From positions 3,859 to 67,858 of the forward strand of contig CAMDIK010000007.1 of the NCBI GenBank assembly GCA_945898725.1: a stretch of 64,000 bases of DNA, written 5' to 3'. The stretch is from Rickettsia typhi (GTDB taxonomy: Bacteria; Pseudomonadota; Alphaproteobacteria; Rickettsiales; Deianiraeaceae). A program made the translations under genes and the position numbers. Shown here in pieces: positions 8,570 to 63,011 of this stretch (the stretch's first letter is position 1; every line of letters starts with the position of its first letter). Below the pieces are notes generated by a model, which worked only from the letters and a program-made list of their open reading frames with translations, had not been told where the DNA came from and searched no databases.

Positions 8570-8645
8570 AATTATTTAGCAAACTGCATCTTAATTGTGA
8601 ATATTTCTGTTTTTGTCAAGGGATTTTTTGCATAAAAATTTTGCA

Positions 8646-9356
8646 TCACAAAAGCCCAATTCGAATATTAAAATCTTCCAGCCGCCTCTTAATTTCCTTG
8701 TAATTTGGGGTAAACTCCCCCTGAAGTTTGTGAAATTTGGCACCGTGATTTTTGTGCTTTAGGTGACAAAGTTCGTGCATTATTACATAGTCAATGCACT
8801 CAAACGGGGTGTGAATTAAGTGCGTATTTAGGGTCATATTTCCATCACTAGACATGGAACCCCACCTGGATTTCATTTTTCTTAAGGTTAAATTCGGGTA
8901 TGGATATTGGTGTTTTTTGGAAAAAATGGCAAAATTTACCTTCAGCCTTTCTTCAAAAACCTCTTTTGCCATATCGGAAAACCATTTTGTGAGTATATTT
9001 TTTACACTTCTTTTTGGTGTTTTGTGGATGAAAATTTCACTCTCCGTATGCATGATTGAATTATTTTTCGCCTCTACAACCCGCAGTTGATATTCCTTTC
9101 CAAGGTAACAAAAAACCTCACCGCTTACATATTCCTTTTTTCGTGGTAAGTTCTTTTGATTTTGCTGAAAATGCTCAATTTTCTTGCTTATCCAGGCTTG
9201 TTTTTGCTCTATAATTTGGTCAATATTTTTCTGCGGCAACCACCTGGGAACGCGCACTTTTACAGTGCAATCGGGGTAAACTTGAATAGAAATACTTCTG
9301 CGATTTTGGGAGGGGAGAATTTGAATTTTGCAGTCTTTGTTTATCATAATTTGCAA
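8646..9356 (-). CDS. YgjP-like zinc metallohydrolase (DUF45 / M48-like)
   Basis: 236 aa with the C-terminal zinc motif YVIMHELCHLKHKNH characteristic of DUF45/YgjP proteins. Confidence 0.75.
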   Translation of the reverse strand: MQIMINKDCKIQILPSQNRRSISIQVYPDCTVKVRVPRWLPQKNIDQIIEQKQAWISKKIEHFQQNQKNLPRKKEYVSGEVFCYLGKEYQLRVVEAKNNSIMHTESEIFIHKTPKRSVKNILTKWFSDMAKEVFEERLKVNFAIFSKKHQYPYPNLTLRKMKSRWGSMSSDGNMTLNTHLIHTPFECIDYVIMHELCHLKHKNHGAKFHKLQGEFTPNYKEIKRRLEDFNIRIGLL

Positions 9357-15846: not shown

Positions 15847-16544
15847 TTTAAAAATTCCAAGCTGCCGGAGGATATTTTAACCACTTCCCCACCTTCAAGA
15901 GCAGCAACAGCGCTGCCATTTTGCGTAAAATCTTGCAAAATCCCTAACCTGCCATCTTGTAATTGAATTTTTTCACCAAACCCGAATGCAATTTTTTTAT
16001 ATTCGTCAATTACCTCATTTTTTTCAAGATAAAGTGGCAACTGCTGCGCAACTTGTGAAATAATTTCATTTGGCGTGATTTTTACCCCGAATTCCTTGAG
16101 AATATTTGATATAGGGTATGGCATTTCCGCTTCCGGGTGAGATATAAGATTCAGCCCAATGCCTATAATGCAGTATTTTATGTTGTCTTTTTGCTCGATA
16201 TTCACAATAATTCCTCCAATTTTCTGATTATTGCAAAAGATGTCATTCGGCCATTTTAAGGTAACTTTATTGGAAATTCCAAATACTTCCAGTGATTTTG
16301 CCACGGACAACCCGGCTTTGATCGACGCCAGCGCTATTTCGCTTGAATTTTCTTGCAAAATTACAAATGAAACAGCCAAATTTCCCATTGCGCTGTGCCA
16401 CTTGCTACCCGATCTTCCAATACCATTTGTTTGATTTTTTGTGTATATGATTGAATTTTGCAGAATATCCCCGCTATTTATTGCGCTGATTGCATACTTT
16501 TGCGTGCTTGCAATTTCCGGTAGAAAAATATACTCAAATTCCAT
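15828..16544 (-). CDS. birA: Biotin--[acetyl-CoA-carboxylase] ligase
   Basis: Motifs GIGRSGSKWHS (the GRGRxGRxW equivalent) and KWPNDIF. The start overlaps the rnj stop by 1 nt (TAATG). Confidence 0.85.
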   Translation of the reverse strand: MEFEYIFLPEIASTQKYAISAINSGDILQNSIIYTKNQTNGIGRSGSKWHSAMGNLAVSFVILQENSSEIALASIKAGLSVAKSLEVFGISNKVTLKWPNDIFCNNQKIGGIIVNIEQKDNIKYCIIGIGLNLISHPEAEMPYPISNILKEFGVKITPNEIISQVAQQLPLYLEKNEVIDEYKKIAFGFGEKIQLQDGRLGILQDFTQNGSAVAALEGGEVVKISSGSLEFLNYVRAI

Positions 16545-18244
16545 TAGACTTCGTGAATAATAACAGATACAATAGGGGTTTTTTCGAATTTTCTTTCAAT
16601 ATCCTTGCCAACGGAAGAAGAGATTATGCCTTCAATTTTTTCCAAATTTGCTTTGTTTTGTAAAACACCTTTCGCGCCCTTTCCAAGCCCGGAGAGGTAT
16701 TTTTCCAAATGATTTTGGGCATTTTTTATGATGTGAGCCATAGCTTTTGCCGTATTTGCCTCGTCCAAAAGCCCTATTAATCTGTGATCAATATTTACAA
16801 TTTTAAGCTTTTCATCAATTGCGATAGATAAATTTACCACGCCGGAATCTTTAATTTTTCTGCGCTCGCGCATGGTTTTTGAAGCCGGGGATAGTAGCAA
16901 ATTTCCGTCCACGCATAGGTAATCTGTGAATACTGTTCCCACTTTTTTTACGTCATCCGTGGAAACAACAAGTACGTCACCATCTTTTACAAAAATGGAT
17001 TTATCCGCCAGTTTTTTTTCGTGAATCAACTTGCAATGCGCGCGTAAATGCACAGATTCCCCGTGCACCGGTATGCCAATTTTCGGCTTTAACATTGAAT
17101 ATAATTCGCATAGTTCATCTTTTTTCGGGTGCCCGGAAACATGCACAAATGCCTCTCTTTCGGTTACAACATTTATGTTTTTATCAGCCAATCTATTCAT
17201 TGTTGCGGAAATTTTCTTTTCATTTCCGGGTATTATTTTTGAAGAAAATATCACGGTGTCGTGCGCATTAATCTTGATTATTGGGTGGGAATTATTAGAA
17301 ATTTTCGCCATACTTGCTAGAACTTCGCCTTGGCAACCGGTGCAAATCATCAAAACTTCTTTGCGTGGAAGCTTTGCCGCCTCTTTTGCATCCATAAAAC
17401 TTTCTGAAGATAAATAGCCACATTTCTTAGCTATTGCTGTAATTTTTGACAAAGAAAGCCCGGAAAGCCCCACAACCCTTCCCGTTCTTTTTGCAACATT
17501 GCACAAGGTTTGAATTCTTGCCACGTTTGATGCAAAAGTTGTAACAAGTACCATGCCTTTTTGATTTTCAACTATATTATATAGATTGTGCTCAAGCTCG
17601 CCCTCGCTTTGCGATCTGCCTTCTGAAAGCACGTTTGTTGAGTCACAAACCACTGCAGTTACGCCTTCTTTTGCAATTTTTTCAAGCTTGGAAAAATCAC
17701 TTTTTTCACCAACTACCGGGCTTTCGTCAAACTTCCAGTCGCCTGTATGAAATATTTTAACATCCCCGCCTTTTATGAAAATTCCGTGCATTTCCGGTAT
17801 TGAATGCGTTAAAAATACCGGTTCTATTGTGAAATTTCCAATTTTAATTTCTGCGCTTTTAATTTCCTTCATTTTAACGTCGGAATAGTCGCCAAGCCTG
17901 TCTTGTAGGCGTAATTTCAGGAATTCCAATGCAAATTTTGTGCCATATACCGGGCATTTTAAGTCTTTTATAAAATGAGAAACCGCCCCCACGTGATCTT
18001 CGTGCACGTGCGTTAACACTATTGCGCTAATTGGAATTTTGTTATTTCGAATAAAGGAAATATCCGGAACTATTATGTCTGCCCCGGGAGTTATGCGCTC
18101 TTCTGAAAAAGACGCGCCACAGTCTAGCATTATCCAGGTATTTTTATAGCAATAAAGCATTAGATTTTTGCCTATATTGCCGCATCCGCCAAGGGGTATC
18201 ATTATTACATTTTCCGCGTCGGATGGAATTGAGAACTTTGCCAT
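16544..18244 (-). CDS. rnj: Ribonuclease J
   Basis: 566 aa with the metallo-beta-lactamase motif LTHVHEDHVGA, a beta-CASP region and a C-terminal domain. Confidence 0.9.
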   Translation of the reverse strand: MAKFSIPSDAENVIMIPLGGCGNIGKNLMLYCYKNTWIMLDCGASFSEERITPGADIIVPDISFIRNNKIPISAIVLTHVHEDHVGAVSHFIKDLKCPVYGTKFALEFLKLRLQDRLGDYSDVKMKEIKSAEIKIGNFTIEPVFLTHSIPEMHGIFIKGGDVKIFHTGDWKFDESPVVGEKSDFSKLEKIAKEGVTAVVCDSTNVLSEGRSQSEGELEHNLYNIVENQKGMVLVTTFASNVARIQTLCNVAKRTGRVVGLSGLSLSKITAIAKKCGYLSSESFMDAKEAAKLPRKEVLMICTGCQGEVLASMAKISNNSHPIIKINAHDTVIFSSKIIPGNEKKISATMNRLADKNINVVTEREAFVHVSGHPKKDELCELYSMLKPKIGIPVHGESVHLRAHCKLIHEKKLADKSIFVKDGDVLVVSTDDVKKVGTVFTDYLCVDGNLLLSPASKTMRERRKIKDSGVVNLSIAIDEKLKIVNIDHRLIGLLDEANTAKAMAHIIKNAQNHLEKYLSGLGKGAKGVLQNKANLEKIEGIISSSVGKDIERKFEKTPIVSVIIHEV

Positions 18245-18323: not shown

Positions 18324-20096
18324 TTACTGGCACGCAACGCATTCTTCATAAAGCGAACCTGTGGAGTTATCTTCTGAAGATTTTACGGCATTATTTTCCA
18401 TTGCAACCAACATTGAGACTTTGTCTGCGCGAGACATTGCAATTGACCTTAAGTAATATAGGCTTTTCACCCCCTTTTTCCAAGCATTAAAATGCAATAA
18501 GTGCAAGTTTTTTTTCGTAATATCTGACTTTACAAATAGATTGTTCGAAGCTGCTTGGTCGATATATGGCGCGCGATCGGCTGCAAAATCTATAATCCAC
18601 ATTTGGTTAATTTCGTGCGCTGTTTTAAATATAGATTTCGTGTAATCATCGAGAAATTCCAAATGCGAAACCGATCCCTCATGACTTGAAATGCTAGACC
18701 AAACATCGTCAGTATTTTGCCCAAGTTTTGTTAATACCACGTCAAGATATTTATTTTTTACGGCAAAAGACCCCGTTAGTGTTTTATGGGTATAGTAATT
18801 TCCATTGCTTGGTTCAACCCCGGGCGAAGTTCCACCGGTTATAATTGAAATTGAAGCAGTTGGCGCGATTGCAGTTTTATTGGAAAATCTTTCGCCGGAA
18901 TTAACGCTTTGCGCATCAGGGCAGGCCCCCCTTTCTTTACCGATTGAAATTGAAGCAGCATTTGCCTGGGTTTGTATGTATTGAAATATGCTTTTATTGA
19001 GCGATTTTGCCGCAACGGACTCAAACGGCAGGTTGTTTTTTTGCAAATAAGAGTGAAAACCCATAGCTCCAAGCCCAATGCTTCTTTCGCGCATGGCTGA
19101 ATATTTTGCATTTTTCATGCTATCCGGCGCGCGTTTTATAAAATCTTCCAAAACATTGTCAAGCATATACATAATATCCAGTATAAATTGCTGATCATTT
19201 TTCCATTCATCATAATATTCAAGATTTACAGAAGAAAGACAGCAAACTGCCGTGCGTTCATTTCCCAAGTGGTCAGTTCCTGTGGGAAGGGTTATTTCAC
19301 TGCATAAATTGGAGGTTTTCACTGAAAGTCCAAGCTTTTTTTGATGCTCCGGTATCGCGCGATTTACCGTGTCTATAAATAGCAGGTAAGGCTCACCTGT
19401 TTCCATTCTTGCATTGAGAATTTTTATCCACAAATCTCTAGCATTTACGGTGGAAATTACTTGTTTTGTATGAGGGCTAATTAGACTCCATTTTTCGTCT
19501 TTTTCCACGCATTCCATGAATTTATCTGTAATGCAAATTCCATGATGTAGGTTTAGCGCGCGGCGATTATTGTCACCTGTTGGGCGTCGCATGTCTATAA
19601 ATTCTTCAATTTCCGGGTGATCTATGGGCAAGTACGTCGCAGCGCTACCCCTGCGAAGAGAGCCTTGTGAAATTGCCAATGTTAGCGAGTCCATTACTTT
19701 AATAAATGGAATAATTCCAGAGGTTTTCCCATTACTTCCAACCGATTCCCCTATAGATCTTACGTTTCCCCAGTAACTTCCAATTCCGCCACCTCTGCTT
19801 GCAAGCCACACATTTTCATGCCATAAATTCGCTATTCCCGATAGAGAGTCATCACATTCATTTAGGAAGCAAGATATTGGCAATCCGCGCTCTAGTCCGC
19901 CATTGCTAAGAATTGGCGTTGCAGGCATAAACCACATTTTGCACATATAGTTATATAGTCTTTCGGCGTGTGTTTTGTCATTGGAATAACAACTTGCAAC
20001 ACGCAAAAATAGATCATCCGGTTTTTCACCTGGAAGAAGATATCTATCTTCCAATACAGCGCTTCCAAAATTAGTTAAACGACTTTCAATACTCAT
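18324..20096 (-). CDS. nrdA: Ribonucleoside-diphosphate reductase alpha chain (class I)
   Basis: 590 aa with FMPATPILSNGG, NLCSEITLP (active-site Cys/Glu region) and a C-terminal cysteine pair ...ECVACQ. No nrdB lies adjacent. Confidence 0.9.
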   Translation of the reverse strand: MSIESRLTNFGSAVLEDRYLLPGEKPDDLFLRVASCYSNDKTHAERLYNYMCKMWFMPATPILSNGGLERGLPISCFLNECDDSLSGIANLWHENVWLASRGGGIGSYWGNVRSIGESVGSNGKTSGIIPFIKVMDSLTLAISQGSLRRGSAATYLPIDHPEIEEFIDMRRPTGDNNRRALNLHHGICITDKFMECVEKDEKWSLISPHTKQVISTVNARDLWIKILNARMETGEPYLLFIDTVNRAIPEHQKKLGLSVKTSNLCSEITLPTGTDHLGNERTAVCCLSSVNLEYYDEWKNDQQFILDIMYMLDNVLEDFIKRAPDSMKNAKYSAMRERSIGLGAMGFHSYLQKNNLPFESVAAKSLNKSIFQYIQTQANAASISIGKERGACPDAQSVNSGERFSNKTAIAPTASISIITGGTSPGVEPSNGNYYTHKTLTGSFAVKNKYLDVVLTKLGQNTDDVWSSISSHEGSVSHLEFLDDYTKSIFKTAHEINQMWIIDFAADRAPYIDQAASNNLFVKSDITKKNLHLLHFNAWKKGVKSLYYLRSIAMSRADKVSMLVAMENNAVKSSEDNSTGSLYEECVACQ

Positions 20097-20353
20097 ATTT
20101 TTTCATTAAAATGAACATTACGCTACATAATAAATATGTACCTAAGGCTTTGGGGTAAGTTTTTTATTTGCAAGAAATTAATATAAAAATTTAGTTTTTT
20201 TTTGAACACCTTTATTCATTTTTTAAACATCCTTCTAGGGTTGATTTGTTGTAAAAAATGGTAAAATTAACAGTAATTCTACAGGATTTTGATAAATGGG
20301 AAACGCCTCTAAAGCGTGAAAAACTACGCAGGTTATATGTATTGTATATATTG

Positions 20354-20488
20354 CTATGCAGAGAGCAATTTTCTTCCTCTTTGTCTACGAGCGGAGATTA
20401 TTTTTCTACCTCCGGCTGTTGACATTCTATGCCTAAAGCCATGTTTGTTTTTTCTTTTTCTGCGACTAGGTTGATATGTTCTAACCAT
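20354..20488 (-). CDS. rpmH: 50S ribosomal protein L34
   Basis: My own translation gives [44 protein letters not shown] (44 aa), the canonical L34 pattern. It is below the ORF-track length cutoff. Confidence 0.9.
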
Positions 20489-20612
20489 ATACAATATACA
20501 AAATTTATTTCTAATAACACTTTATTAACCTAAACTTTTTAAAGTCAAGCAAAAATAACTTGAAAATAAAAATAAATATAATGTATACATAATTTACAAT
20601 TGAGGAATAAAC

Positions 20613-21053
20613 ATGAATACCACTGAAATCATTTCGTATTTACCGCATAGATACCCCATGTTATTGATTGATAAAGTTTTGGAAGTTGTGCCGGAAAAAA
20701 GCATAAAAGTTCTAAAAAATGTCACGGCAAATGAAGAATTTTTTGTTGGGCACTTCCCGCAAGATCCTATTATGCCTGGGGTGCTAATTATTGAGTCAAT
20801 TGCCCAGGGTGCTGGAATTTTAGCAATGAAAACCCTTGAATATCAAGGCAGGGAAGCCAAGGGCAAAAAAGTATATTTCACAGGGATAGATGCTGTAAAA
20901 TTTAGAGGAATGGTAAAACCAGGGGACACAATGATACATCATATAGAGTTGGTTAGGTACAAGCTGGGTATATGTAAATTTTCAGCAAGAACATTTGTTG
21001 AAGATAAGCTTGTGGCAGAGGCGGAAATTTCTGCGATGATAGATTTGAAGTAA
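20613..21053 (+). CDS. fabZ: 3-hydroxyacyl-ACP dehydratase FabZ
   Basis: LPHRYPMLLIDKV and FFVGHFPQDPIMPGVLIIESIAQ. Confidence 0.95.
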   Translation: MNTTEIISYLPHRYPMLLIDKVLEVVPEKSIKVLKNVTANEEFFVGHFPQDPIMPGVLIIESIAQGAGILAMKTLEYQGREAKGKKVYFTGIDAVKFRGMVKPGDTMIHHIELVRYKLGICKFSARTFVEDKLVAEAEISAMIDLK

Positions 21054-30760: not shown

Positions 30761-32269
<1,509 letters not shown>

Positions 32270-49834: not shown

Positions 49835-51323
49835 TTACCTCTGCTAAAAAACAACAAAATTCACCTTTTTGAATAGCATTTTTCGGGAAAATTACGAACG
49901 AATCTCTGCTGGCTGAAATATTTTCACCCCCGTCATTTGCAAAATTTTCGCCTGATTTTACCAATGTAAAATTCGCTATATTTTCTTGTGCGAAGCGGAA
50001 ATTGCCTGATTTTGCTACGATTTTATCGTATATTCTGAATTTTTTCACCCCCGCTGCGGTTGTTGTGAATTCTTTTCTAAAATGCGCCTGAATTAATTCC
50101 ATTGACTCTTTTGAAAAATATTTCGGATTTTTAAAGGTACTTCCAACTGTTTTTCTGCCAATAGGTTGAGTTTTGGCACGCTTTTCTGAAATTTCTTTCA
50201 TTTTTTTCAAAATTTTCTCACATTCACCACTCTGCCCTTCTAAAACCACTTTAGTTATTATTATATCGCTTGGTAAATTCGCGCTTCTATATGTAAAATT
50301 TACATCTTTTTTATGCAAAATTCCAATATTTCCCGCAAAATCAACATACTCGCAGGAGGTAAAAATATCGGATATTTCCCGCCCATAGCAACCCGCGTTC
50401 ATGTGCACATTCCCCCCGATTGTGCCTGGAATTCCTATTAAAAACTCCATTCCTGATATGCCATTTTCAGCTGCAAATTGTGCCACGGAAAAATCTAAAG
50501 CCCCTGCCCCAACTTCTATTTTTTTCTCTGAAATTTTTCGCATTCCGGAAAAGCCTTTTTTCAGGGAAATTACAGCCCCGCGCACGCCTTTATCGCGCAC
50601 AATTGTGTTTGATCTTGCCCCAATAACGGTTAAAGAAAGGGAATTTTCCGCCTCTAAAATGGTGCATTTTTCCTGTATTATTCGCATAATTCCATCAAGT
50701 GCAACTTTGCTACAGGAATTTTCAATTGACCCCGCTTCGATTGTTACGCCAATTCCTCCATTTCTATCAATAAATGAGTCAAAACTGGTGAATAAATCTT
50801 TGTCTTCTTGGGAAAAGTTCCCCCCGGGAGAAATTATTGTATTTATTTCAAAATTTTCAGCAATTTCAAGATGAGGCAGGGAATTTTTGCAGAAAATAAA
50901 TGGCTTCGAAGCCCTGATCGTTGAGTGAACGTCCAGCAAAATATCACAATTTGAAAAGAACGGAAGTATTGCAACAAGCCTTGCACGCTCGGTATTTGTT
51001 CGATTTCCCACCAGGTTTTCAAGACCTTCAAGACCAAGCAGGCGATTCATGTCTTCCACAACGAATCGCACATTTTGCCTTATTGCCTCTATATTTGCAC
51101 AGATAAATGTCACTTTTCCTGAAGATATTCCGCATTTATCCAGGTGTGGTATTGCGCTTTGCATAATATCAAGCCCGACTGTTTCATTTCCGTGTACGCA
51201 CAGGGTTATTGCTATGTGCGCGCCGGGTTTTTCGCCTTTTATTTCAAAAATACCCTTCCCCAGCTTGGAAAATCTTTGAAAATTCAGCGATATTTTTTCT
51301 AACAAATTGTCAATTTCCTGCAT
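49827..51323 (-). CDS. Chimeric protein: AstE/AspA-family zinc deacylase core (aa ~1-215) fused to a MurB-like (UDP-N-acetylenolpyruvoylglucosamine reductase-like) domain (aa ~215-498)
   Basis: The N-terminal half has CVHGNETVG, ANIEAIRQNVRFVVEDMNRL, DILLDVHST and GVTIEAG, the zinc and catalytic residues of the succinylglutamate desuccinylase/aspartoacylase family. The C-terminal half has VIGARSNTIVRDKGVRGAVISL, GMEFLIGIPGTIGGNVHMNAGCYG, FTYRSANLP and TQPIGRKTVGSTFKNP, all MurB motifs. The region after that is poorly conserved. Confidence 0.7.
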   Translation of the reverse strand: MQEIDNLLEKISLNFQRFSKLGKGIFEIKGEKPGAHIAITLCVHGNETVGLDIMQSAIPHLDKCGISSGKVTFICANIEAIRQNVRFVVEDMNRLLGLEGLENLVGNRTNTERARLVAILPFFSNCDILLDVHSTIRASKPFIFCKNSLPHLEIAENFEINTIISPGGNFSQEDKDLFTSFDSFIDRNGGIGVTIEAGSIENSCSKVALDGIMRIIQEKCTILEAENSLSLTVIGARSNTIVRDKGVRGAVISLKKGFSGMRKISEKKIEVGAGALDFSVAQFAAENGISGMEFLIGIPGTIGGNVHMNAGCYGREISDIFTSCEYVDFAGNIGILHKKDVNFTYRSANLPSDIIITKVVLEGQSGECEKILKKMKEISEKRAKTQPIGRKTVGSTFKNPKYFSKESMELIQAHFRKEFTTTAAGVKKFRIYDKIVAKSGNFRFAQENIANFTLVKSGENFANDGGENISASRDSFVIFPKNAIQKGEFCCFLAEVNE

Positions 51324-51324
51324 A

Positions 51325-52167
51325 TTAATAGTTATACATTTTTTCGTCAGATTCTATCACCGTGCCTATTCCATCTTTGGAAAAAATCTCATTTACCAGG
51401 GAATTTTGCTCTAACCCGCTGATAATATGTATTTTTGAAACACCCCCAAAAATGCTCTCTTTTATGTTTTCCATTTTCACAAACATGCCATCTTTTATTG
51501 CCCCGGAATTCATTAGCGGTTCAATTTCGCTATATTTTATAACCGAAATTTTACCCCCATCCCTGTTCATAACAAATGGAACATCTGATATAAAAATAAT
51601 CTTGTCCGCACCGATGGCAACTGCTATTTTACTTGCCGTTGTGTCTGCATTTATATTCAAAATTTCGCCATTTTGATGGTTAATTCCCAGGCTCGCGCAC
51701 AGCAAAATACCTTCGTTATTCAAAATTTCGCGAATTTTATTTCCATGAACAACAAAAATGTTGCCAACCATGCCAAAATTTCCAACACTCCGCTTTTCAA
51801 TGCCTATAATGCTATTATTTATGGGAAAATGCGAAACAAATGACGCACTTTGCAGGTTTAACATGCCGGAAATATCGGCTATAATTTTCCCGCAGCACAT
51901 TTTTGCGCATTCTATATCGCCATCCAGCGTAACCCTTCTTCCGTTGATTTTTTCCGGCTTTCGATTGTAAATTTTCTCCGACATTTCGTCCAATTGCACG
52001 CCAAATCCGCAAATAATTACAATTTTCACCCCATAATTCTGAAGAGCCTTGATGTTTTCTGTAACATTTTGCAAAGCTTCGTGATTATTTAGAACCTTAC
52101 CGCTAATTTTGATAACAAATATCGAGTTTTTGAATGCTAATTTGTAAAAAGATTCATTGTGATTCAT
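51325..52167 (-). CDS. argB: N-acyl-glutamate kinase (ArgB, amino-acid kinase family)
   Basis: VIKISGKVL, VIICGFGVQ and LNINADTTASKIAVAIGADKIIFISDV. Confidence 0.88.
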   Translation of the reverse strand: MNHNESFYKLAFKNSIFVIKISGKVLNNHEALQNVTENIKALQNYGVKIVIICGFGVQLDEMSEKIYNRKPEKINGRRVTLDGDIECAKMCCGKIIADISGMLNLQSASFVSHFPINNSIIGIEKRSVGNFGMVGNIFVVHGNKIREILNNEGILLCASLGINHQNGEILNINADTTASKIAVAIGADKIIFISDVPFVMNRDGGKISVIKYSEIEPLMNSGAIKDGMFVKMENIKESIFGGVSKIHIISGLEQNSLVNEIFSKDGIGTVIESDEKMYNY

Positions 52168-52179
52168 GTGCTAAAAAAA

Positions 52180-53172
52180 TTATGGATAAATTGGATTTAT
52201 ATTTACAAGCCCGGCATTTTGATTAAAATCAAACATTAAATTCATGCACTGCACCGCATTTCCCGCCGCACCTTTTACCAAATTGTCAATTGCCCCTTGT
52301 ATTAAAATTGTATTATTATCTAATATTGTGTATGAAATATCGCAGAAATTTGCCCCAATAACATTGGCCAATTCAACCTTTTCAACCCTTCTGATAAATT
52401 CATACTGAATGTTAAATTTTTCCAAGCATTTTTCCGCAGGCTCCTGGGTTTTTACGATGCAATTTGCAAATATTCCGCGCACAAATGGCCCGGAAGACGG
52501 AATCATATTCAGTGAAATCTTCGGAAAAGACTGTAAAATTTCGCCAATATGCCTGTGTTTATTGATATTATAGCTAAATAAATTATGGCTTCTGATCGGG
52601 TGGTGCGTGGTATTTGAAATTTTTTTACCACTACCACTTGAACCTGTAATTGCAAAAATATCCACAGTTTTAGCAAAATTTTCCAATGGCAAAAGGCATA
52701 ATTGCGATAAAATTGCAAAGCACCCCGGGTTGGCGATGGCAATTGCATTTTTCACCCCTTCGATATTTTTTTCCACAAATCCGTATGTGAATTTCTGCGA
52801 TAAATCTTCAGAAAAACCCACGTCTGGGTAGTATTTTTCATGTAATTCCTGTGATTTTAAGCGAAAATCTGCCGAAAGATCGATAATTTTTGTAAAACCT
52901 AGCATTTTTCTGACATATTCATGAGATTCCCCGTGCGGAAGGGCTAAAAAAACGCAGTCGCTGTCTTGCACAATTTCCTCAATGCTTGCGGTTGTAAAAT
53001 TCCCCCCCCAGTGAGAGAGGTGCAAAATGCTGTCTCCTATTCTTGTTCCTGCTAAATTTCGTGAGAAAATATGCAAAATTTCAACGTTCTGATGGGCGGA
53101 TAAAATTCGCAAAAGTTCCATGCCCGTGTAGCCAAGCGCGCCTATTATTGATACTTTAATTTTCCCGTTCAT
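52180..53172 (-). CDS. argC: N-acyl-gamma-glutamyl-phosphate reductase
   Basis: VSIIGALGYTGMELLRIL and the active-site region IANPGCFA. 330 aa. Confidence 0.88.
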   Translation of the reverse strand: MNGKIKVSIIGALGYTGMELLRILSAHQNVEILHIFSRNLAGTRIGDSILHLSHWGGNFTTASIEEIVQDSDCVFLALPHGESHEYVRKMLGFTKIIDLSADFRLKSQELHEKYYPDVGFSEDLSQKFTYGFVEKNIEGVKNAIAIANPGCFAILSQLCLLPLENFAKTVDIFAITGSSGSGKKISNTTHHPIRSHNLFSYNINKHRHIGEILQSFPKISLNMIPSSGPFVRGIFANCIVKTQEPAEKCLEKFNIQYEFIRRVEKVELANVIGANFCDISYTILDNNTILIQGAIDNLVKGAAGNAVQCMNLMFDFNQNAGLVNINPIYP

Positions 53173-53173
53173 G

Positions 53174-54208
53174 TTACAAAACTTTACTTAAAATTGCCAC
53201 AATACTATCCACTGAATTTCGCCTAATTGCGTTAAAAACCCCAATATCTACAGTCTTTTTTATGATATTCACCCCAACCATATTATCCGTTACCGGCCCG
53301 GATAAAATGTCTGGTTTAATGCCAATTTTCAAGCAATCTTCATAGATTTTTAGGCTTCCTGGTATGTCATTTGCGCAAATTATGCACAGTGATATGCTAT
53401 TTTTTATTTCCTCGTCCAGTAATAGCTCTTTTACGCCATAATTTCCGTATAGCCCGTCTCCAAGTTCCAAAAAAATCACATCCGCATCTGTGTTATTTAG
53501 ATGATTTATAATGCCTTTCGTTGACTGAATGACTAAATTTTTGTCCTCAATGCACGTTGAAGGAAGCCCGCAATCAACAAATGAAGCCCCGGTAAAACAG
53601 CCACAATCTATCATTTGATAAACATCTTTCATCGCCCCAACGCCTGTAACTTTTGCAACGGCTATATTCTTATTTTCCGAAGCCAAAATTTGTATAATAC
53701 TACTGGCAGTTGTAGTTTTTCCCGAATTCATTCCCGTGCCAACAACGGTTACAATCTTTTTTTTATTTTGTAAATTACTGGCCGGGCTGATGGTTTGATA
53801 GTTTTTAAGCAGCATTTGCTTGCCATTTTCATCAAGAATTGCGCCTATAACACTGCATTTTACAGGACCTCCAACGCTTGAGTTGTAATCTAAACACTCC
53901 CCAGCAACGCCTGCAATATTTAAAACATCCAGCGCATCTCCGGGGTGTAATATTTTTGGAACAACCCCGCACATTCCCTGCATTGCAAATCTTGTTCCCA
54001 AAACCACGGGAATTACATCGCCTTGATATAATACGCACATTCTGCCGGATTTTAATTCAAGTATATTGTAATTCGTGTTCGCATTTACAACTTTCACAGC
54101 CAAAACCGTGCCCATTTCTGCTTGAATATTTTTTGAAATCATCACCTCACGCGGTAGGTTTATATTTTTTGTAATTGACGATATTTTATTTAGAATTATT
54201 TTTTCCAT
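53174..54208 (-). CDS. Walker-A (P-loop) protein of unknown family embedded in the arginine operon
   Basis: 344 aa. The N-terminal ~150 aa are beta-rich. A Walker A motif VTVVGTGMNSGKTTTASS lies at aa ~154-170, followed by IAVAKVTGVGA and DVIFLELGDGLYGNYG. The start overlaps the argF' stop by 23 nt and the stop lies 1 nt before the argC start. Confidence 0.7.
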   Translation of the reverse strand: MEKIILNKISSITKNINLPREVMISKNIQAEMGTVLAVKVVNANTNYNILELKSGRMCVLYQGDVIPVVLGTRFAMQGMCGVVPKILHPGDALDVLNIAGVAGECLDYNSSVGGPVKCSVIGAILDENGKQMLLKNYQTISPASNLQNKKKIVTVVGTGMNSGKTTTASSIIQILASENKNIAVAKVTGVGAMKDVYQMIDCGCFTGASFVDCGLPSTCIEDKNLVIQSTKGIINHLNNTDADVIFLELGDGLYGNYGVKELLLDEEIKNSISLCIICANDIPGSLKIYEDCLKIGIKPDILSGPVTDNMVGVNIIKKTVDIGVFNAIRRNSVDSIVAILSKVL

Positions 54209-55232
54209 CGGACATTAAAAACAAATTGTGCATTAGTGAAATTTGACTCCAAAGGCGATTTTCCGCCTCATTTATTATAACAGAATTCGCGCAATCAAGC
54301 ACATTGCTTGAAACTTCAATATCTCGCCTCACGGGAAGGCAGTGCATAAAAAGCGCATTATTTGTGAGGTTCATTTTGCCCAAATCAAGCATCCAATTTT
54401 GATATTTTGTATAGTAATCATCGGAGTTTTCAAGGGTTTTATTTTGCAAATTTTCAAGTGAAAGCCAAGATTTTGCAATAACAACATCCGCACCGGAAAG
54501 TGCCTGATTTTGATTGTATTCTATGTTAAAACTTTTTGAATATTTTGCAACTTTATCAAGGCATTTTGTGCTTAATTCAAACCCTGGCGGGCATGCCAGA
54601 GTAACATTTGCGCCAAGCATTGCTGGGGATAAAATTTGCGATTGCGGTGTTGCAATTGGCAAATGTTTAATGTGCGGCGCGTAGGTTATTACCACTTTTT
54701 TCCCAGAAAAATCAACGTTATTTTCAAAATTTTCCGCCATTGTCACCAAATCCGCCAGCCCTTGCATCGGGTGAAAGGCATCTGATTCCAAATTTACAAT
54801 CAAAGCCTTCGAAAAACTTGCAAAATTATAGATAAAATCGTCATTTATTAGCGATTCCGGGGAAATATTGGCATCCCCCCTGCCCCCAATAAAATTGCTA
54901 TTTCTAAGCCCGATAATATCCGAATATCGCGACAAAACCCGCGCGGCTTCTTTAATGTGCTCTGGTTTGTCGGAATTCATGGGTACATTTTCCGTTTCAA
55001 ATTTGTATAAACTGCTCATATTTTCGCAAATTACGCTCATTTGCATTTTTTGCGCGGCAATTGAAGATGAAATTCTTGTTCGCAAAGACTCGTTAAAAAA
55101 CAGAAATAATGCTGATTTATCGGGGTATTTTGGAATTAATTGCGGGTTATTCTTAAAAGCAATTGCGTCTAGTGTGACTTTTTTTACAAAATCTAAACCA
55201 AATTCGTCTCCAATTATAAAATTATTTCCCAT
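54186..55232 (-). CDS. argF: N-acyl-L-ornithine carbamoyltransferase (ArgF' type; succinylornithine-type signature)
   Basis: FFNESLRTR (S-x-RTR), HPMQGLAD and FMHCLPVRRD are present, and the canonical ornithine-binding DxxxSMG motif is absent. The segment YKFETENVPMNSDKPEHIKEAARVLSRYSDIIGLRN and VVITYAPHIKHLPIATPQS closely parallel Bacteroides fragilis ArgF' as I recall it. Confidence 0.8.
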   Translation of the reverse strand: MGNNFIIGDEFGLDFVKKVTLDAIAFKNNPQLIPKYPDKSALFLFFNESLRTRISSSIAAQKMQMSVICENMSSLYKFETENVPMNSDKPEHIKEAARVLSRYSDIIGLRNSNFIGGRGDANISPESLINDDFIYNFASFSKALIVNLESDAFHPMQGLADLVTMAENFENNVDFSGKKVVITYAPHIKHLPIATPQSQILSPAMLGANVTLACPPGFELSTKCLDKVAKYSKSFNIEYNQNQALSGADVVIAKSWLSLENLQNKTLENSDDYYTKYQNWMLDLGKMNLTNNALFMHCLPVRRDIEVSSNVLDCANSVIINEAENRLWSQISLMHNLFLMSDGKNNSK

Positions 55233-55234
55233 AT

Positions 55235-56440
55235 TTACTCAAAATCATTAGAATATCTTGTCCAGTATGCATTTTTTGCCTCAAATGAGTGCAGTTTTGC
55301 AAAAGATTTTGCGTCCGCGCCGCTCCATGCGGACATTGTTTCGCCGTATGTTCCAACCGTTTTGTTAAACATTGAATATCTGGAATTTATCGACTCCACT
55401 TGCAAATTTCCATGAGAAATTGAAAGCACAACCTCCCCGGTTACAAAATTATTCGCGCTATTTATCATCGCCTCAATATCCAGCAGCAGCGGTTCGTAAA
55501 AATGCCCCTCGTGAATCATGTCTCCATAGACATTTCCCAGGTGATTTTTCCAGAAAATTTGTTTAGAAGTGAGAACGGTTTTTTCAAGCTCGCAGTGGGC
55601 GAAAATCAAGATTTTATAGCCCGGCGCCTCAAATCCAAGGCGCGCTTTTAGACCCAAAATTGACGTTCCTATGTGGTAGCCCCTGCCGTACCCAGTGGAA
55701 AAACCAATTTCATTCAATGCTTGCATAATTTCAACCCCGGATTGAGATTTTCCGTTAATTTTCATGATATTTCCTGCCTCAAATTCCAAGGAAATTACGT
55801 GTTTTTGCAAATTATTGCACTTATTTGCGTTGGGAAATGCCAAATCTGGCAGTGATTGTTTGGTATCCAGCGTCTCCTTCCCCCCGATGGTATTTCCAAT
55901 TAATCCAGTATTTACAGAGTAATCTTTGTTTTTTGCATCAAATTCCACGCCCTTGCTTTTGATATATTCTAAAGTTTTTTCTCTGGAAAGCCCAAGTTCG
56001 CGAATTGGCGCGAAAATCTCCATTTTTGGCAGAATTGTTTGTAAAGATGACTCAAATCTTATTTGATCTCCACCCGCGCCCGTTGAGCCGTGTGCTATGG
56101 CAGAAATTTCAGAATTGTTCTTAGATATTTTGCATATTTCCTCAACAATCACAGCTCTTTCAGGGCCAACGCACGGCGGATATGTTCCATTTCTGAGGTA
56201 ATTTGCTTTTATTAAGGGAGAGACAAATTTTGCAAATAAAGCGTTGCCGGCGTCAACGTGATAATGCTTTTTTGCACCCAATTTATACGCCCATTTTTCA
56301 ATTTTTTCATTCTCTTTGTGGGAAAATCCACCGGTGTCAACCGTTATTGTTTCAACCTGAAAACCCTGCTCTTGCAGGTAAAGCAGGCAAAATGTTGTAT
56401 CCAAACCGCCCGAAAATGCTAATAAAACCGTTCTTGACAT
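55235..56440 (-). CDS. argG: Argininosuccinate synthase
   Basis: LAFSGGLDTTFCLLYL (PP-loop), AHGSTGAGGDQIRFE. 401 aa. Confidence 0.93.
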   Translation of the reverse strand: MSRTVLLAFSGGLDTTFCLLYLQEQGFQVETITVDTGGFSHKENEKIEKWAYKLGAKKHYHVDAGNALFAKFVSPLIKANYLRNGTYPPCVGPERAVIVEEICKISKNNSEISAIAHGSTGAGGDQIRFESSLQTILPKMEIFAPIRELGLSREKTLEYIKSKGVEFDAKNKDYSVNTGLIGNTIGGKETLDTKQSLPDLAFPNANKCNNLQKHVISLEFEAGNIMKINGKSQSGVEIMQALNEIGFSTGYGRGYHIGTSILGLKARLGFEAPGYKILIFAHCELEKTVLTSKQIFWKNHLGNVYGDMIHEGHFYEPLLLDIEAMINSANNFVTGEVVLSISHGNLQVESINSRYSMFNKTVGTYGETMSAWSGADAKSFAKLHSFEAKNAYWTRYSNDFE

Positions 56441-56446
56441 ATAAAA

Positions 56447-59400
56447 CTAAAAATACTCACTAATAGACATAATATTTACAATATTTTCCGAGGAAAATGC
56501 ATATTCAGCAGCCTTTAAATAGGTTAAAAATGTGTGCAAATTTGAGAAATATTGCATTGACCCAACCTGACTTTGACTGAAGTTATTTTCCGTTAAATTG
56601 CAGAGGATGTCGCTTGATTTTGCGTGCTGAATTTTTAACAACATTTCTTCAATTTCTCCGCTTGAATAGACTTCAATTTCTTTATAAAGCTTCTTAAGTT
56701 TACTGATTAAATTCCCAGTAATTTCAGGATTATCTGCAAGTAAAAATATTTTAGATTCCTTATTAAGTTTGTACCCGGCGGAGATCATTCCCTTGTAAAA
56801 AGATTCTTGCGCAGATTTTCCAATTCCAATCACCTCGCCCGTTGACTTCATTTCCGGGGAAAGATTCATTCCGGCTTTTGGAATTTTTCGTGTTGAAAAT
56901 ACTGGTATTTTTGCCACAAAAATATCCTTTTTCGACAGCAAAGCTGTTTCAATTTTCCCGCCAAACATACAGCTAATTGCCATTTTAACCATATTAATTC
57001 CCATTATTTTCGTGATCACAGGAATGGTTCGCGAAGCCCTGGGATTTACTTCAATTGTGTAAATTTCCCCATTTTTTATAATAAATTGTATATTTATAAA
57101 CCCGATAATATTAAATTTTTTGCAAATTTTCTGCGTAATTTTCAGGATATTTTTACGCAAATCTTCCGGCAAATTGTCCGGATAAATTGCAATACTGTCC
57201 CCGGAATGCACACCAGATTCCTCAATATGCTCTAAAATTGCTGGAATAAATACGTTTTCCCCGTCTGAAATTCCGTCAATTTCAACCTCCAAACCCTGCA
57301 CATATTCGTCAATTACTATGGGGTAACTTTCTGGGTGTACGGAGGATATATAGTTTAAAAATTCAGCCTCATTGCGCAAAATTTTAATTCCATACCCGCC
57401 AATCACGAAAGATGGCCTTGCAATTGCCGGATAGAATATATCTTTTGCCTTTTCCGCGATGCATTTTTCCGAATGAATTAGGATTGTTTTTGGGTAAAGA
57501 ACGCCAATTTCCCCCATTTTCTCGTGGAAAGTTGCTCTATTTTCGGTATCAACCATAGACTGAATAGCGGTGCCAAGTACGGGAACTTTTGTGCCAGTAG
57601 CATGAATATCAAATGCCATTTTTAACGCCATTTGCCCCCCGCATTGAAAAATTACACCCATTGGATTGAATGTGCGAACTATATTTAGCAAATATTCAGC
57701 CTTCATCGGTTCGAAAAATAGGCAATCTGCCATGTCAAAATCTGTGCTTAAAGTTTCAGGATTATTATTTAAAACGAATGCCTGATGTTTGAAATTTTTC
57801 ACTTCTTTTATGGCGTGAACACAGGAATAATCGAATTCTATGCCCTGCCCCACGGCTATTGGCCCGGAGCCGATTATTATTACAGCATTTTCCCCGTTAA
57901 TTTGGGCGGTTTCGCTGGATTCATTGTGTGCAGAATAGAGATAATTGCTGTTGCATTTGAATTCCGCCGCGCAAGAATCCACTTTTTTGTAAACATAGTT
58001 TGATTTTTTTGTATTTGGAACATATTTTTGCAAAATTTCCCAGTGAATTCCGTATTGTAATGCTAAATTTTCATCCTCCGGAGTTAAGCTATTTTTCTGT
58101 GAGACTTTATTCAGAATTTCTGCTATATTTTGCATTTTTTTCAAGAACCAAGGGGTAATTCCTGTGTTTTGAGCAATTTTTTCTATTTTCACACCGGACT
58201 TTAGCAAATTTAAAATCTGCATAAGCCTATCTGCGCTTGGAACCTTAATTTTCTCAAGCAAATCTTCAGAAATTTCCTTACTTGGTGCAAAAATTGCCTC
58301 GTTATATAGCGTAAAAAGCCCTTTTACCAACGCACCCTCAAAGCTTCTGTCAATCACCATAACCTCGCCCGTTGACTGCATTTGTGTGCCTATTGTTCTA
58401 TCTGTAACTTTGAATTTTTCGAAGTTCCATTTGGGAATTTTCACAACAACGTAGTCAATAACCGGTTCGCATGCTGCGCTGGAATTTTTTGTCATAAAAT
58501 TCTTAATTTCGTGCAAATTTTTTCCGATGGCAATATTTGCAGCAATTTTTGCAATTGGGTAACCCGTTGCCTTTGAAGCAAGCGCGGAAGACCTGCTAAG
58601 TCTGGGATTTACCTCAATAACACAGCATTTTGCGTTATCCGGCGACACCGCAAGCTGAACATTGCAAGCGCCTTCAATTTTCAAATTTCTAACTATTTTT
58701 ATAGACAAACTGCGCAATTTTTGGTAAGTTTTGTCGTCTAAAGTCTGGGAAGGGGTAACAACTATGCTATCGCCCGTGTGCACGCCAACCGGGTCGATAT
58801 TTTCCATGTTGCAAATTGCGATGCAAGTGTCATTTTTATCACGAATTACCTCATATTCAATTTCCTTCCAGCCGTATAAGCTTCCCTCTACTAAAATTTG
58901 CCCGATTGTGCTGGAATTAATGCCAAGTGTAGCAATTTTTCTGAATTCTTCTTCATTATGCACAACGCCGCTACCCGTTCCACCAAGCGTGAAGGCTGAT
59001 CTTATCATCACAGGGAATTTTATTTTTTTTGCAAATAACAAAGCGGCTTCAAGGTCTGTAAAAGCTGCGCTTTCCACCGGATCTTCCCCTATTGATCTTA
59101 AAAATTCTGCAAAAAGCTTTCTATCCTCTGCAAGTTTTACGGCTTCAATGTTAGTTCCGATGAATTTTACGCCATATTTTTCCAAAATTCCCGATTCATA
59201 AAGCAAGCAACCCATGTTCAAACCTGTTTGCCCGCCAAAAGTTGGTAAAATGCAATTAATTTTCTCTCGCTGGATGATTTTTTCAACTGTTTCCAGAGTC
59301 ATTGGTTCTATGTAAACCCTGTCTGCAATGGAATTATCCGTCATTATTGTTGCGGGATTGCTATTCAAAACAACGGTTTTATAGCCCGCCTCACGAAGAG

Positions 59401-59491
59401 CGATTAGTGCCTGCACCCCCGCATAGTCAAATTCCGCCGACTGCCCTATAACAATTGGCCCGGAGCCTATAATTAAAGCTATATTACTCAT
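56447..59491 (-). CDS. carB: Carbamoyl-phosphate synthase large subunit
   Basis: Two ATP-grasp halves ([22 protein letters not shown]... and [23 protein letters not shown]...). The likely start is the MSNIALIIG methionine at 59491, overlapping the carA stop by 8 nt (aATGAGTAA), rather than the track start at 59530. Confidence 0.95.
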   Translation of the reverse strand: [1014 protein letters not shown]

Positions 59492-60554
59492 TTGATTCAC
59501 CAAACCATTCATGAAATATAAAATTTGCATCGTCCGTTCCGGGGCAAGATTCCGGGTGAAATTGAGCTGTTTTTATTAGAAATTTTTCCGATATTATACC
59601 CTCTACCGTTTCGTCATTTAGATTGACATATTTTGCCTTTACGCCATTTGGAATGCTTTCCGTTACAACGGAATAAGAGTGATTTTGCGAGATTAAAAAC
59701 ACGCGATTTGTCTCTGTGTCAATTACCGGGTGGTTTGATCCGCGATGCCCGAAAACCATTTTTTCAACCCTGCACCCAAGCGCCAGGCATATTATTTGGT
59801 GCCCAAGGCATATTCCGTAAATTGGAATTTCGCCGATTAGATCTTTGATTTGCGCGATTAAATCTGCTAAATCCGCGGGATTTCCTGGGCCATTTGATAT
59901 GATAATTCTATTTATTGAATATTTTTGGATACATTCTAAAATGTTTGCGCTGTATGGAACGATGAAAATATTGCCGAATTTTGCTAAATTATCTATAATT
60001 CCCTGTTTTACCCCGCAATCTATTAGTAAAATATTTGATTTTGCTGAATTTTCCCCGGGTATGATTACATCTTTTGCAACGCAGCTTGCCAGAATGCAGT
60101 CTTGTGTATTGATTTCAAATTCCTTGATTAATTCGCTACTTTTTTCGCGACTAAACTCTGAAGCCTTCCAAATTCCAAGTTTTTTCACCTTACCATCTCT
60201 GATTTTTTGTGTTAAATCTCTGGTGTCAAGCCCGGTAATTACGGGAATATTGTGGGAATTCAGGTAATTTACAACGCAATCTTCTGCCTCCTTCGCAATT
60301 AGGCAAGATATTTTCGCTGCCTGGCTTTGACTTACCAAAGAATTTAGATTGTAATTTCCGATCAAAGGGTATGTCATTACCACGGTTTGCTGCGCATAAG
60401 ATGGGTCAGTAAAAATTTCCTGATACCCAGTCATGCTTGTATTGAAAACCAATTCCGATATAATGGAATCTACTTTAACCTGCGAATAAAACGATATTTC
60501 TAAACCGTTATCAAATAAACATATATAATTTTCCATTCCTGGGGCGCATAGCAC
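59484..60554 (-). CDS. carA: Carbamoyl-phosphate synthase small (glutaminase) subunit
   Basis: GICLGHQ and the triad region HRGSNHPV...FHPE. The track start at 60554 is GTG; an ATG at 60536 is an alternative. Confidence 0.92.
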   Translation of the reverse strand: MLCAPGMENYICLFDNGLEISFYSQVKVDSIISELVFNTSMTGYQEIFTDPSYAQQTVVMTYPLIGNYNLNSLVSQSQAAKISCLIAKEAEDCVVNYLNSHNIPVITGLDTRDLTQKIRDGKVKKLGIWKASEFSREKSSELIKEFEINTQDCILASCVAKDVIIPGENSAKSNILLIDCGVKQGIIDNLAKFGNIFIVPYSANILECIQKYSINRIIISNGPGNPADLADLIAQIKDLIGEIPIYGICLGHQIICLALGCRVEKMVFGHRGSNHPVIDTETNRVFLISQNHSYSVVTESIPNGVKAKYVNLNDETVEGIISEKFLIKTAQFHPESCPGTDDANFIFHEWFGESNE

Positions 60555-62307: not shown

Positions 62308-62399
62308 ATTATATCACAATATTTTGCATAAATCAAGAAAATTTTACTTGCTTAATATTGTAAATCTGTTTAGCAAATTTATGCTTGTGCTTTATACCG

Positions 62400-63011
62400 A
62401 TGGAATATTTTATAACTTTTGCATTTACGCACTTTTTGGCAACATTTGGGCCGGGTTTATGCACTTTCGCTGTTATAAAATCGGGAATTTTGCACGGTTT
62501 TGCCAGCGCAAAAAAAGTTGCAATATCCGTTGCCACAATTGATAGTATCTACGGAATATTGGCGGTTATCGGGCTTGGAGAGTTGATATCTTCCTCGGAA
62601 TTTGTTGCAAAAATTGTGCAATTTTTTTCCGGCGGATATTTGCTTTTTCTGGGAATTTACACTATATATGGATACTTGAAAAATAGGTCCAAGGGTGCCG
62701 GAGTGCCTGATGATGGCGTGGTTTCTGCGGGCAAGAATTTTTATATATATGGCATTGTAAATGGGCTTTTGAATATCAAAACAATCATTCTTTATATTGC
62801 AATTTTGTCTGAATTGATGAGAATTTTGACAATACCTGAAAAAATTGGTTATGTATTTTGGTTTGTAATCATGAATTTTGCAATTTATTTATTTATGGCG
62901 CGATTTGTGCAAGTTGCGGTAATTAGAAAATTTATGCTTGAAAAATTCGAGATAATAAATTTAGCATTCGGCATAATGCTTATAGCTTCTGCGTTAAAAA
63001 TACTAACATAA
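62400..63011 (+). CDS. LysE/RhtB-family amino-acid exporter
   Basis: About 203 aa and 5-6 TMs, with N-terminal FLATFGPGLCTFAVIKSGILHG typical of the LysE translocator family. The track start at 62385 is TTG; an ATG at 62400 is listed here. Confidence 0.7.
   Translation: MEYFITFAFTHFLATFGPGLCTFAVIKSGILHGFASAKKVAISVATIDSIYGILAVIGLGELISSSEFVAKIVQFFSGGYLLFLGIYTIYGYLKNRSKGAGVPDDGVVSAGKNFYIYGIVNGLLNIKTIILYIAILSELMRILTIPEKIGYVFWFVIMNFAIYLFMARFVQVAVIRKFMLEKFEIINLAFGIMLIASALKILT

Follow-up and report, generated by a model that had tools for sequence, protein, structure and literature searches.

A P-loop protein encoded before argC as a candidate non-GNAT N-succinylglutamate synthase of bacterial arginine operons

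Within a 64,000-nt stretch of contig CAMDIK010000007.1 (assembly GCA_945898725.1, Rickettsia typhi; hereafter the window, whose coordinates are used unless a locus is named), the arginine operon contains a gene for a 344-residue protein, here called X, that probably acts as a non-GNAT N-succinylglutamate synthase and catalyzes the first step of arginine synthesis in place of both the GNAT enzyme ArgA and ArgJ. A preliminary description of this DNA, made from its letters alone, had proposed such a non-orthologous replacement, and the idea gains support from the conserved gene context, the fold, a proline at position 90 of the neighboring ArgF', an AstE-like gene in the operon, and a preprint. 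The latter, the GapMind 2026 preprint, independently made a matching prediction, in which a hypothetical protein of Steroidobacter (ACG33_RS14135 / A0A127FCT3) is the missing N-succinylglutamate synthase.

In the pathway that we propose, X would N-acylate L-glutamate, with succinyl as the most likely acyl group and N-succinyl-L-glutamate as the product. The latter would be handed to ArgB and ArgC, both encoded immediately downstream of X, and next to an aminotransferase whose gene lies elsewhere. N-Succinylornithine would be carbamoylated by ArgF', N-succinylcitrulline would be desuccinylated by the AstE-like hydrolase, and the last steps would fall to ArgG and ArgH. The reaction of X, its acyl group and its donor are what we infer from the gene position, the distribution of the family, the fold and conserved residues, the ArgF' specificity residue, and a natural fusion, each described below. 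N-acetylglutamate synthase is the most variable arginine step and a frequent gap that makes prototrophs look auxotrophic in genome-based metabolic models. If X has the proposed role, its family would close the first-step gap for at least 583 species-level genomes, among them lineages abundant in soil and sediment (Blastocatellia, Woeseiaceae, Planctomycetota, and Gemmatimonadota) as well as predatory or host-associated Alphaproteobacteria.

Gene X, its family, and its place before argC

The gene lies on the minus strand, and its start codon is backed by the alignment, in which homologs start at the same position.

53174-54208 (-): X, 344 residues, ATG start; candidate non-GNAT N-succinyl-L-glutamate synthase (open reading frame, homologs, place before argC, confident model)

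Both junctions are as the preliminary description had them: the argF' open reading frame (ORF; 54186-55232) shares 23 nt with X, and a single base separates the X stop codon TAA from the argC ATG, the sequence reading AAAGTTTTGTAA-C-ATGAACGG. Judged by its sequence relatives, X is a real gene, with homolog E-values down to 1e-170 and, in a pattern scan that took a single genome for each GTDB species, a relative in at least 583 genomes. It belongs to no curated family; Pfam and NCBIfam matches were all sub-threshold and confined to residues ~145-193 (CbiA, 19.5 bits; DUF1611_C, 17.8 bits; pMurD2, 17.8 bits), so that comparison with family hidden Markov models assigned no known family. The same scans returned none of the GNAT, ArgJ, aminotransferase, and ATP-grasp signatures, the absence of which had been noted earlier. 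Matches by phmmer to designed pentatricopeptide-repeat proteins (E 1e-9) were rejected as a summed-repeat artefact over a 25-residue stretch, each single match having an i-Evalue above 100.

A word-indexed search returned 33 clusters of X homologs, an apparent rarity that is a sensitivity limit of that search; one seeded with the gammaproteobacterial X of locus L078 yielded at least 7,505 clusters with E ≤1e-30, each of them labelled hypothetical. With a profile of the N-terminal domain of X, 939 of 1.84 billion 50%-identity representatives were matched at E ≤0.001 and 453 at ≤1e-10. Among the 150 matches listed, the domain was nearly always N-terminal in proteins of 340-370 residues or fragments thereof, and it therefore appears essentially confined to the X architecture.

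For the gene neighborhood, ORFs were called in 88 loci and matched to reference arginine proteins. X recurs with arginine genes throughout: argC directly follows X in 83 of the 88 loci, at a median distance of -4 nt, and the five exceptions comprise two short outgroup contigs (L007 and L008), one ORF-calling artefact (L039), and two real cases (L038 and L063). The surveyed loci span Alphaproteobacteria, Gammaproteobacteria (Woeseiaceae), Acidobacteriota, Planctomycetota, Gemmatimonadota, Myxococcota, Spirochaetota, Elusimicrobia, and Armatimonadota. Four layouts were found, namely X-argC-argB-argD-argF in Micavibrio-like Alphaproteobacteria, (argR)-argG-X-argC-argD-argF'-argB-(M20 argE)-argH in most phyla, (carAB)-argG-argF'-X-argC-argB-AstE-argH in the clade of the window, and X-argC-argD-argB-M20 of the Myxococcota type. 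A gene for a DUF805 membrane protein often lies between argB and argD in the Micavibrio-like clade, and one for a small tRNA-binding-domain protein (PF01588) lies between argC and argD in Blastocatellia/Pyrinomonadaceae clusters (L061, L065, L084, and L085).

The X clusters carry argB, argC, argD, argF or argF', argG, argH, and argR, often with a deacylase, and none of them contains argA, argJ, or a GNAT gene, as judged from scans that included representative ORFs without assignment. A GNAT or ArgJ hidden among the latter was sought and rejected; they encode DUF805, a Cys/Met pyridoxal-5'-phosphate enzyme, PhnA, DDAH-like, RtcB, tRNA-binding, glyoxalase, DUF4126, and MipA proteins. As these are unrelated, X is the sole recurrent unassigned gene, and N-acylglutamate synthase is the only pathway step never represented in X clusters.

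An outgroup subfamily of X relatives (392 residues, 22-26% identity) is encoded outside arginine operons (L090 10001-15539; L091 793-6331). It retains the GTGMNSGKTT, K, RD, PST, and E..D motif, and its gene is followed by genes for an 840-residue protein that bears a PGA_cap domain (poly-gamma-glutamate CapA-like) and for an ABC exporter.

A natural fusion links X to arginine synthesis in another way. In protein P0436 a complete X is joined to an amino-acid-kinase domain (673 residues after extension to an upstream ATG). It occurs on four contigs, and the three shown come from three separate Joint Genome Institute metagenome samples.

L093 5860-7881, also in L094 and L095: X::kinase fusion gene (found among the N-domain matches)

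Its kinase part most resembles ArgB and the kinase-like domain found in ArgA (TIGR00761, 127 bits, under the cutoff of 151), and the gene lies divergently beside an arginase gene instead of in an arginine operon. Since classical ArgA is likewise built from an acylating module joined to an ArgB-like domain, the fusion is a link between X and the N-acylglutamate step that does not depend on gene order. We discounted two further apparent fusions. An X-ArgC fusion (P0239, 549 residues) was rejected as an assembly artefact, since TamB is split into three genes on the same contig, which points to frameshift errors, and an ArgG-X read-through on a fragment (P0430) is probably the same kind of artefact.

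Both the outgroup subfamily and the position of the fusion gene beside arginase, rather than in a biosynthetic operon, could be taken to mean that X has a function outside arginine synthesis and only travels with the operon. We consider this extremely improbable, since the X-argC adjacency is kept over about ten phyla and four operon layouts, which is unexpected for a passenger gene.

Fold, invariant residues, and acyl donor of X

The AlphaFold2 model of X, computed with 31 homologs, has a predicted local distance difference test (pLDDT) score of 93.9 and a predicted template modelling score of 0.92. Residues 1 to ~146 form an all-beta domain, in keeping with the beta-rich N-terminal domain of ~150 residues anticipated in the preliminary description, and are followed by an alpha/beta domain; the three motifs that it had quoted are all present. 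Residue invariance, here and below, refers to an alignment of 89 sequences.

53771-54208 (-): N-terminal all-beta domain, residues 1-146, with invariant D64, R73, A75, L96, G100, and G103 (model, alignment)
53177-53761 (-): C-terminal SIMIBI-class P-loop domain, DTBS-like, residues 150-344 (Foldseek, PDB profile search, hhalign)
53714-53740 (-): extended Walker A motif GTGMNSGKT, residues 157-165, with invariant G157, M160, G163, K164, and T165; aligns with DTBS G8-T16 (alignment, hhalign)
53642-53653 (-): KVTG, residues 186-189, with invariant K186, the equivalent of the DTBS "second lysine" K37 (alignment, hhalign)
53624-53626 (-): invariant D195, aligned with the DTBS Mg2+ ligand D54 (alignment, hhalign)
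53453-53479 (-): Walker-B-like strand VIFLELGDG, residues 244-252, with invariant E248, corresponding to DTBS E115; D251 is also invariant (alignment, hhalign)

Searching the PDB with Foldseek, we found dethiobiotin synthetase (DTBS; PDB 3of5) as the top match to X, with an E-value of 1.1e-6 and a TM-score on the target of 0.54-0.57, followed by SRP54/FtsY, HypB, and MeaB-like proteins. Profiles of the X family searched against PDB sequences returned only DTBS (3fgn, E 7e-4) and MobB, over the region from the P-loop to beta2. When X was compared by hhalign with an Escherichia coli BioD sequence whose numbering matches literature positions, K164/T165 aligned with K15/T16, K186 with K37, D195 with D54, and E248 with E115, at a probability of 54% and an E-value of 1.3e-4. 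As these invariant residues map to catalytic residues of DTBS, the site looks catalytic; further invariant residues are G189, F210, G214, T218, A279, and G304. The N-terminal domain, modelled alone, reached a pLDDT of 93.9 and had no significant fold match in the PDB by Foldseek (best E 0.36, every TM-score ≤0.38). It is presumed to be a substrate-binding module.

In the proposed mechanism, the nucleotide-diphosphate portion of the acyl donor would be bound by the DTBS-like P-loop domain, and the substrates would be positioned by the beta-domain specific to the family, in which Arg73 and Asp64 are invariant. We tentatively favor succinyl-coenzyme A (CoA) as the donor, on the P-loop precedent of DgcN for N-acetylation of glutamate and on the use of acyl-CoA by all other bacterial ArgA analogues known to us. 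The GapMind 2026 preprint calls DgcN an acetyltransferase; to our knowledge, no other P-loop enzyme has been characterized as N-acylating glutamate.

The same two points argue against an alternative nested within the first-step role, which we regard as possible but doubtful. X could be a CoA-independent, ATP-dependent carboxylate-amine ligase of the DTBS type. It would phosphorylate free succinate, or conceivably a second glutamate at its gamma-carboxylate, and the alpha-amino group of L-glutamate would attack the resulting acyl phosphate. DTBS is the first-ranked match by both fold and profile, all four of its Mg-ATP and catalytic elements align with invariant residues of X, and the Rossmann-like DUF1611_N domain is absent from X. 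In addition, the outgroup subfamily keeps the invariant residues beside a PGA_cap protein and an ABC exporter, the setting expected for an ATP-dependent glutamate amide ligase, and the ATP-dependent N-protection of glutamate by ArgX and LysX offers a precedent. However, the ADP moiety of CoA could be bound just as well by the invariant residues, the hhalign comparison with BioD is of only intermediate probability, and ATP use by X is putative. The choice between succinyl-CoA and ATP decides whether the family is a second DgcN-like lineage of acyltransferases or a new CoA-independent ligase. In the latter case X, with a beta-domain of a hitherto unseen fold, would be the bacterial equivalent of an ArgX that needs no carrier, and would offer hundreds of species in about ten phyla a new first-step solution, and its outgroup relatives would be glutamate-ligating enzymes of capsule-like polymer loci. 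The first-step role itself, if true, would make X a rare SIMIBI P-loop protein that acts as an amino-acid N-acylating enzyme.

The Foldseek matches also include HypB, MeaB-like G3E, and SRP GTPases at E-values similar to that of DTBS, and X and argC are tightly coupled in translation in almost all genomes. Both would suit an accessory nucleoside triphosphatase that serves ArgC and/or ArgB as an assembly factor, scaffold, or regulator, comparable to HypB, UreG, MeaB, or MinD, and the kinase fusion could then reflect a regulatory complex. We think this role unlikely. On inspection of the alignment, X has neither the NKxD guanine motif nor the metal-binding Cys/His motifs of G3E proteins, and K186, its DTBS-type second lysine, is typical of enzymes in the class and not of switches. 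Moreover, we know of no need of ArgC or ArgB for a maturation factor or metal insertion, and an accessory role would give no account of the missing ArgA step in those genomes for which a lack of ArgA is reported.

The acyl group and the operon of the window

The operon of the window lies on the minus strand in the order carA-carB-argG-argF'-X-argC-argB-(AstE-like)-argH.

59484-60554 (-): carA, carbamoyl-phosphate synthase, operon head (ORF, phmmer, annotated carAB homologs in L001 and L003)
56447-59530 (-): carB, carbamoyl-phosphate synthase, operon head (ORF, phmmer, annotated carAB homologs in L001 and L003)
55235-56440 (-): argG, argininosuccinate synthase (Pfam/NCBIfam)
54186-55232 (-): argF', N-acylornithine transcarbamylase of the AOTCase/SOTCase type; Pro90 codon at 54963-54965 (PDB matches, position mapping)
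52180-53172 (-): argC (TIGR01850, 281.7 bits, above the cutoff; junction with X)
51325-52167 (-): argB, N-acylglutamate kinase (AA_kinase family; TIGR00761, 134.6 bits)
49827-51323 (-): AstE/AspA-family deacylase, 498 residues, with a MurB-like insert at residues ~201-427 (50043-50723) (Pfam and NCBIfam domains)
48530-49834 (-): argH, argininosuccinate lyase (TIGR00838, 321 bits)

The operon had been described as lacking a glutamate N-acyltransferase, and Pfam and NCBIfam indeed identified no argA, argJ, or GNAT gene in it. None of the 20 other window ORFs scanned is argA, argJ, argD, or a GNAT gene, and phmmer over all ORFs of the 64-kb window did not find argD, an M20 argE, or argR.

The acyl group is suggested by the neighbors of X, and the succinyl option named in the preliminary description is favored by both ArgF' Pro90 and the AstE-like gene. 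Compared with the PDB, the window ArgF' matched N-acetylornithine transcarbamylase (AOTCase) and the N-succinylornithine transcarbamylase (SOTCase) of B. fragilis with E-values of 1e-45 to 1e-41 and ornithine transcarbamylases (OTCases) with 1e-21; it scored 239 bits against NF003384, under the cutoff of 288. Its best PDB match is a chain with DGDT-P-EHI at the site where the other AOTCase chains of X. campestris have DGDT-E-EHI. Since the window protein has NSDK-P-EHI, its Pro90 falls on the acetyl/succinyl specificity position (AOTCase Glu92). In the account of Shi et al. 2007 given by the GapMind 2026 preprint, replacement of AOTCase Glu92 by A, P, S, or V shifts the specificity to N-succinylornithine. 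Across 70 aligned transcarbamylases encoded near X, the equivalent residue is Ala in 36, Thr in 15, Pro, Ser, and Val in 5 each, Gln in 3, and Gly in 1, and Glu in none, although ~24 of the 70 are canonical OTCases of the Micavibrio-like clade (TIGR00658, 322-342 bits, cutoff 281), in which the position is uninformative.

In L009-L033, of the Micavibrio-like clade (for example L010 14643-15554 and L013 14155-15072), X is clustered not with ArgF' but with a canonical OTCase that scores above the cutoffs of both TIGR00658 and NF001986. X is thus not tied exclusively to ArgF'.

In the clade of the window, an AstE/AspA-family hydrolase holds the operon place that an M20 ArgE has elsewhere (L001 12918-13829, L029 12917-13786). 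The gene fits a succinyl group, and on its domain assignment the window protein may be a non-orthologous N-succinylcitrulline desuccinylase. In L003 (11320-13527) a hydrolase of this family is fused to ArgH (735 residues). The MurB-like insert of the window protein is an in-frame segment of ~225 residues (FAD_binding_4 and part of MurB_C, MurB model positions 54-251 of 303), placed at the junction of the two AstE/AspA domains. The chimera is also present in the closest relative, L089 (500 residues), and L001 has a plain AstE-like gene (303 residues). Between the window and L089 the insert is 68% conserved and the AstE parts 51-54%, which indicates that the insert is real and under selection. 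The L001 operon has a gene for a 262-residue penicillin-binding-protein-type transpeptidase between argG and argF' (7974-8762), which with the MurB insert makes two cell-wall genes inside the arginine operon of this lineage.

Many X clusters (in Woeseiaceae, Blastocatellia, and the Micavibrio-like clade) have no deacylase, and S. denitrificans is reported to lack both ArgA and ArgE (GapMind 2026 preprint). These gaps would both be covered if X were an ArgJ-like recycling transacylase that passes the succinyl group of N-succinylcitrulline or N-succinylornithine on to glutamate. We rate this as very improbable, as many other clusters, that of the window included, pair X with an M20 ArgE-type or AstE-type hydrolase, such an enzyme would not need an intact Mg-nucleotide site, and X is unlike the N-terminal nucleophile (Ntn) hydrolase fold of ArgJ.

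Beyond the operon, a LysE-type amino-acid exporter gene adjoins the arginine operon both in the window (62385-63011, +) and in L001 (1233-1823, -), a relative of 61% identity. About 3 kb downstream of the arginine operon of L003, on the opposite strand (16214-17681, -), lie a second amino-acid-kinase-family gene and a hexapeptide-repeat acyltransferase gene. In L089, VirB8-like and CagX-like type IV secretion genes occur near the arginine operon (3749-4591 and 19944-20696), which hints at a host-associated alphaproteobacterial lifestyle of the lineage; the closest GTDB homologs likewise suggest an alphaproteobacterial affiliation. The window also contains a complete, lone 16S rRNA gene (30761-32269, +), with 23S and 5S matches nowhere in its 64 kb; the rRNA genes thus appear unlinked, as in many reduced or host-associated genomes.

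Relation to known systems

The preprint based its prediction for the Steroidobacter protein on the conserved arginine-operon context, on anti-correlation with ArgA, on ArgF' position 92, and on a weak Foldseek match to DgcN (PDB 7XRJ, E 1.4e-7, with a root-mean-square deviation of 5.6 Å), and reported that the protein is always in arginine operons and never found with ArgA (GapMind 2026). Steroidobacteraceae members (MCU0975004.1 and others) match the window X over the full length, with 34% identity over 337 residues and an E-value of 9e-59. By this similarity to proxies from metagenome-assembled genomes, used in place of ACG33_RS14135 itself, we place the window X as a divergent member of the predicted family. 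Both families consist of hypothetical proteins encoded virtually always in arginine operons, beside argB, argC, argD, argF', argG, argH, and argR, with a residue other than Glu at position 92 of the neighboring ArgF', and both have members in Steroidobacteraceae and Woeseiaceae; the clade of the window differs in its own layout and in an AstE-type instead of an M20-type deacylase. The role of the family was thus already predicted in the preprint, to which we add the X::kinase fusion, the mapping of DTBS catalytic residues, the failed DUF1611 membership described next, the AstE-type candidate desuccinylase in the clade of the window, and the pairing of X with a canonical OTCase in one clade.

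DgcN and X are both P-loop proteins of ~340 residues that act, or would act, on the alpha-amino group of glutamate, and DUF1611_C is the commonest weak Pfam match of the X family. DgcN (DUF1611; PF07755 and PF17396) is catabolic and handles D-glutamate, whereas X sits in a biosynthetic arginine operon. DgcN reportedly uses acetyl-CoA. Among the 89 members, Pfam returned four families, all of the P-loop kind (DUF1611_C in 52, best E 8.6e-6; CbiA in 27; MobB in 25; AAA_26 in 2). The DUF1611_C matches in individually inspected members cover only positions 7-68 of the 201 in the profile, and Woeseiaceae members match MobB only. The gathering score of PF07755 was not reached by the window X (17.8 bits, cutoff 25) or by the individually scanned members (19.1-20.5 bits), no Pfam match to DUF1611_N (PF17396) was found over the N-terminal half of any of the 89 members, and no DUF1611 gene was found in the fetched loci. 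With PF07755 below threshold and PF17396 absent, X is not a member of DUF1611, and the resemblance suggested in the preliminary description amounts to generic P-loop similarity; in sequence, X appears no more specifically like DgcN than like DTBS, CobQ, or MobB.

Several points weigh against the assignment of X as the N-succinylglutamate synthase. The failed DUF1611 membership weakens, without removing, a DgcN-like working of X. DgcN 7XRJ was absent among the best 50 (E-values up to 3.1e-5) of the 188 Foldseek matches of X with E ≤0.001, and the structural link to DgcN, which supports acyl-CoA chemistry, was not reproduced among these 50 for the window protein. Nothing in solved structures indicates that the modelled N-terminal domain would bind glutamate. 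The role of the family is a prediction in the preprint as well; an argA or argJ may lie outside the 64-kb window; and the canonical OTCase of the Micavibrio-like clade means that the acyl group cannot be generalized across the family.

ArgJ, with its Ntn-hydrolase fold, showed no similarity to X by Pfam or Foldseek. In the LysW pathway, ArgX and LysX carry out the ATP-dependent N-protection of glutamate with an ATP-grasp fold and the LysW carrier, and their gamma-glutamyl-glutamate linkage is chemically close to succinyl-glutamate. X had no ATP-grasp match in Pfam or NCBIfam, and no LysW-like gene was noted in the clusters.

Among solved structures, BioD is the best match to the C-terminal domain of X, and the extended P-loop GTxxxxGKT, the second lysine, and the Asp and Glu Mg2+ ligands of BioD are all conserved in X. 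BioD uses ATP to activate a carboxylate-type group for attack by an amine. It is a single-domain protein of ~225 residues in a biotin context, whereas X has two domains, 344 residues including an extra beta-domain of 146 residues, and an arginine context; X had no NCBIfam BioD match, and AAA_26 matched weakly in 2 of the 89 members only.

The reaction proposed for X is that of ArgA2 (BT3761), the GNAT-type N-succinylglutamate synthase of Bacteroidetes, which has genetic support and is also encoded in an arginine operon (PMC9026213). The two share the succinyl pathway with ArgF', but their folds are unrelated, X having no GNAT signature. The window X is unfused, but its family reproduces, in the 673-residue X::kinase fusion, the pairing seen in classical ArgA (kinase and GNAT) and in the bifunctional N-acetylglutamate synthase/kinase, with the domain order reversed and a P-loop domain instead of GNAT.

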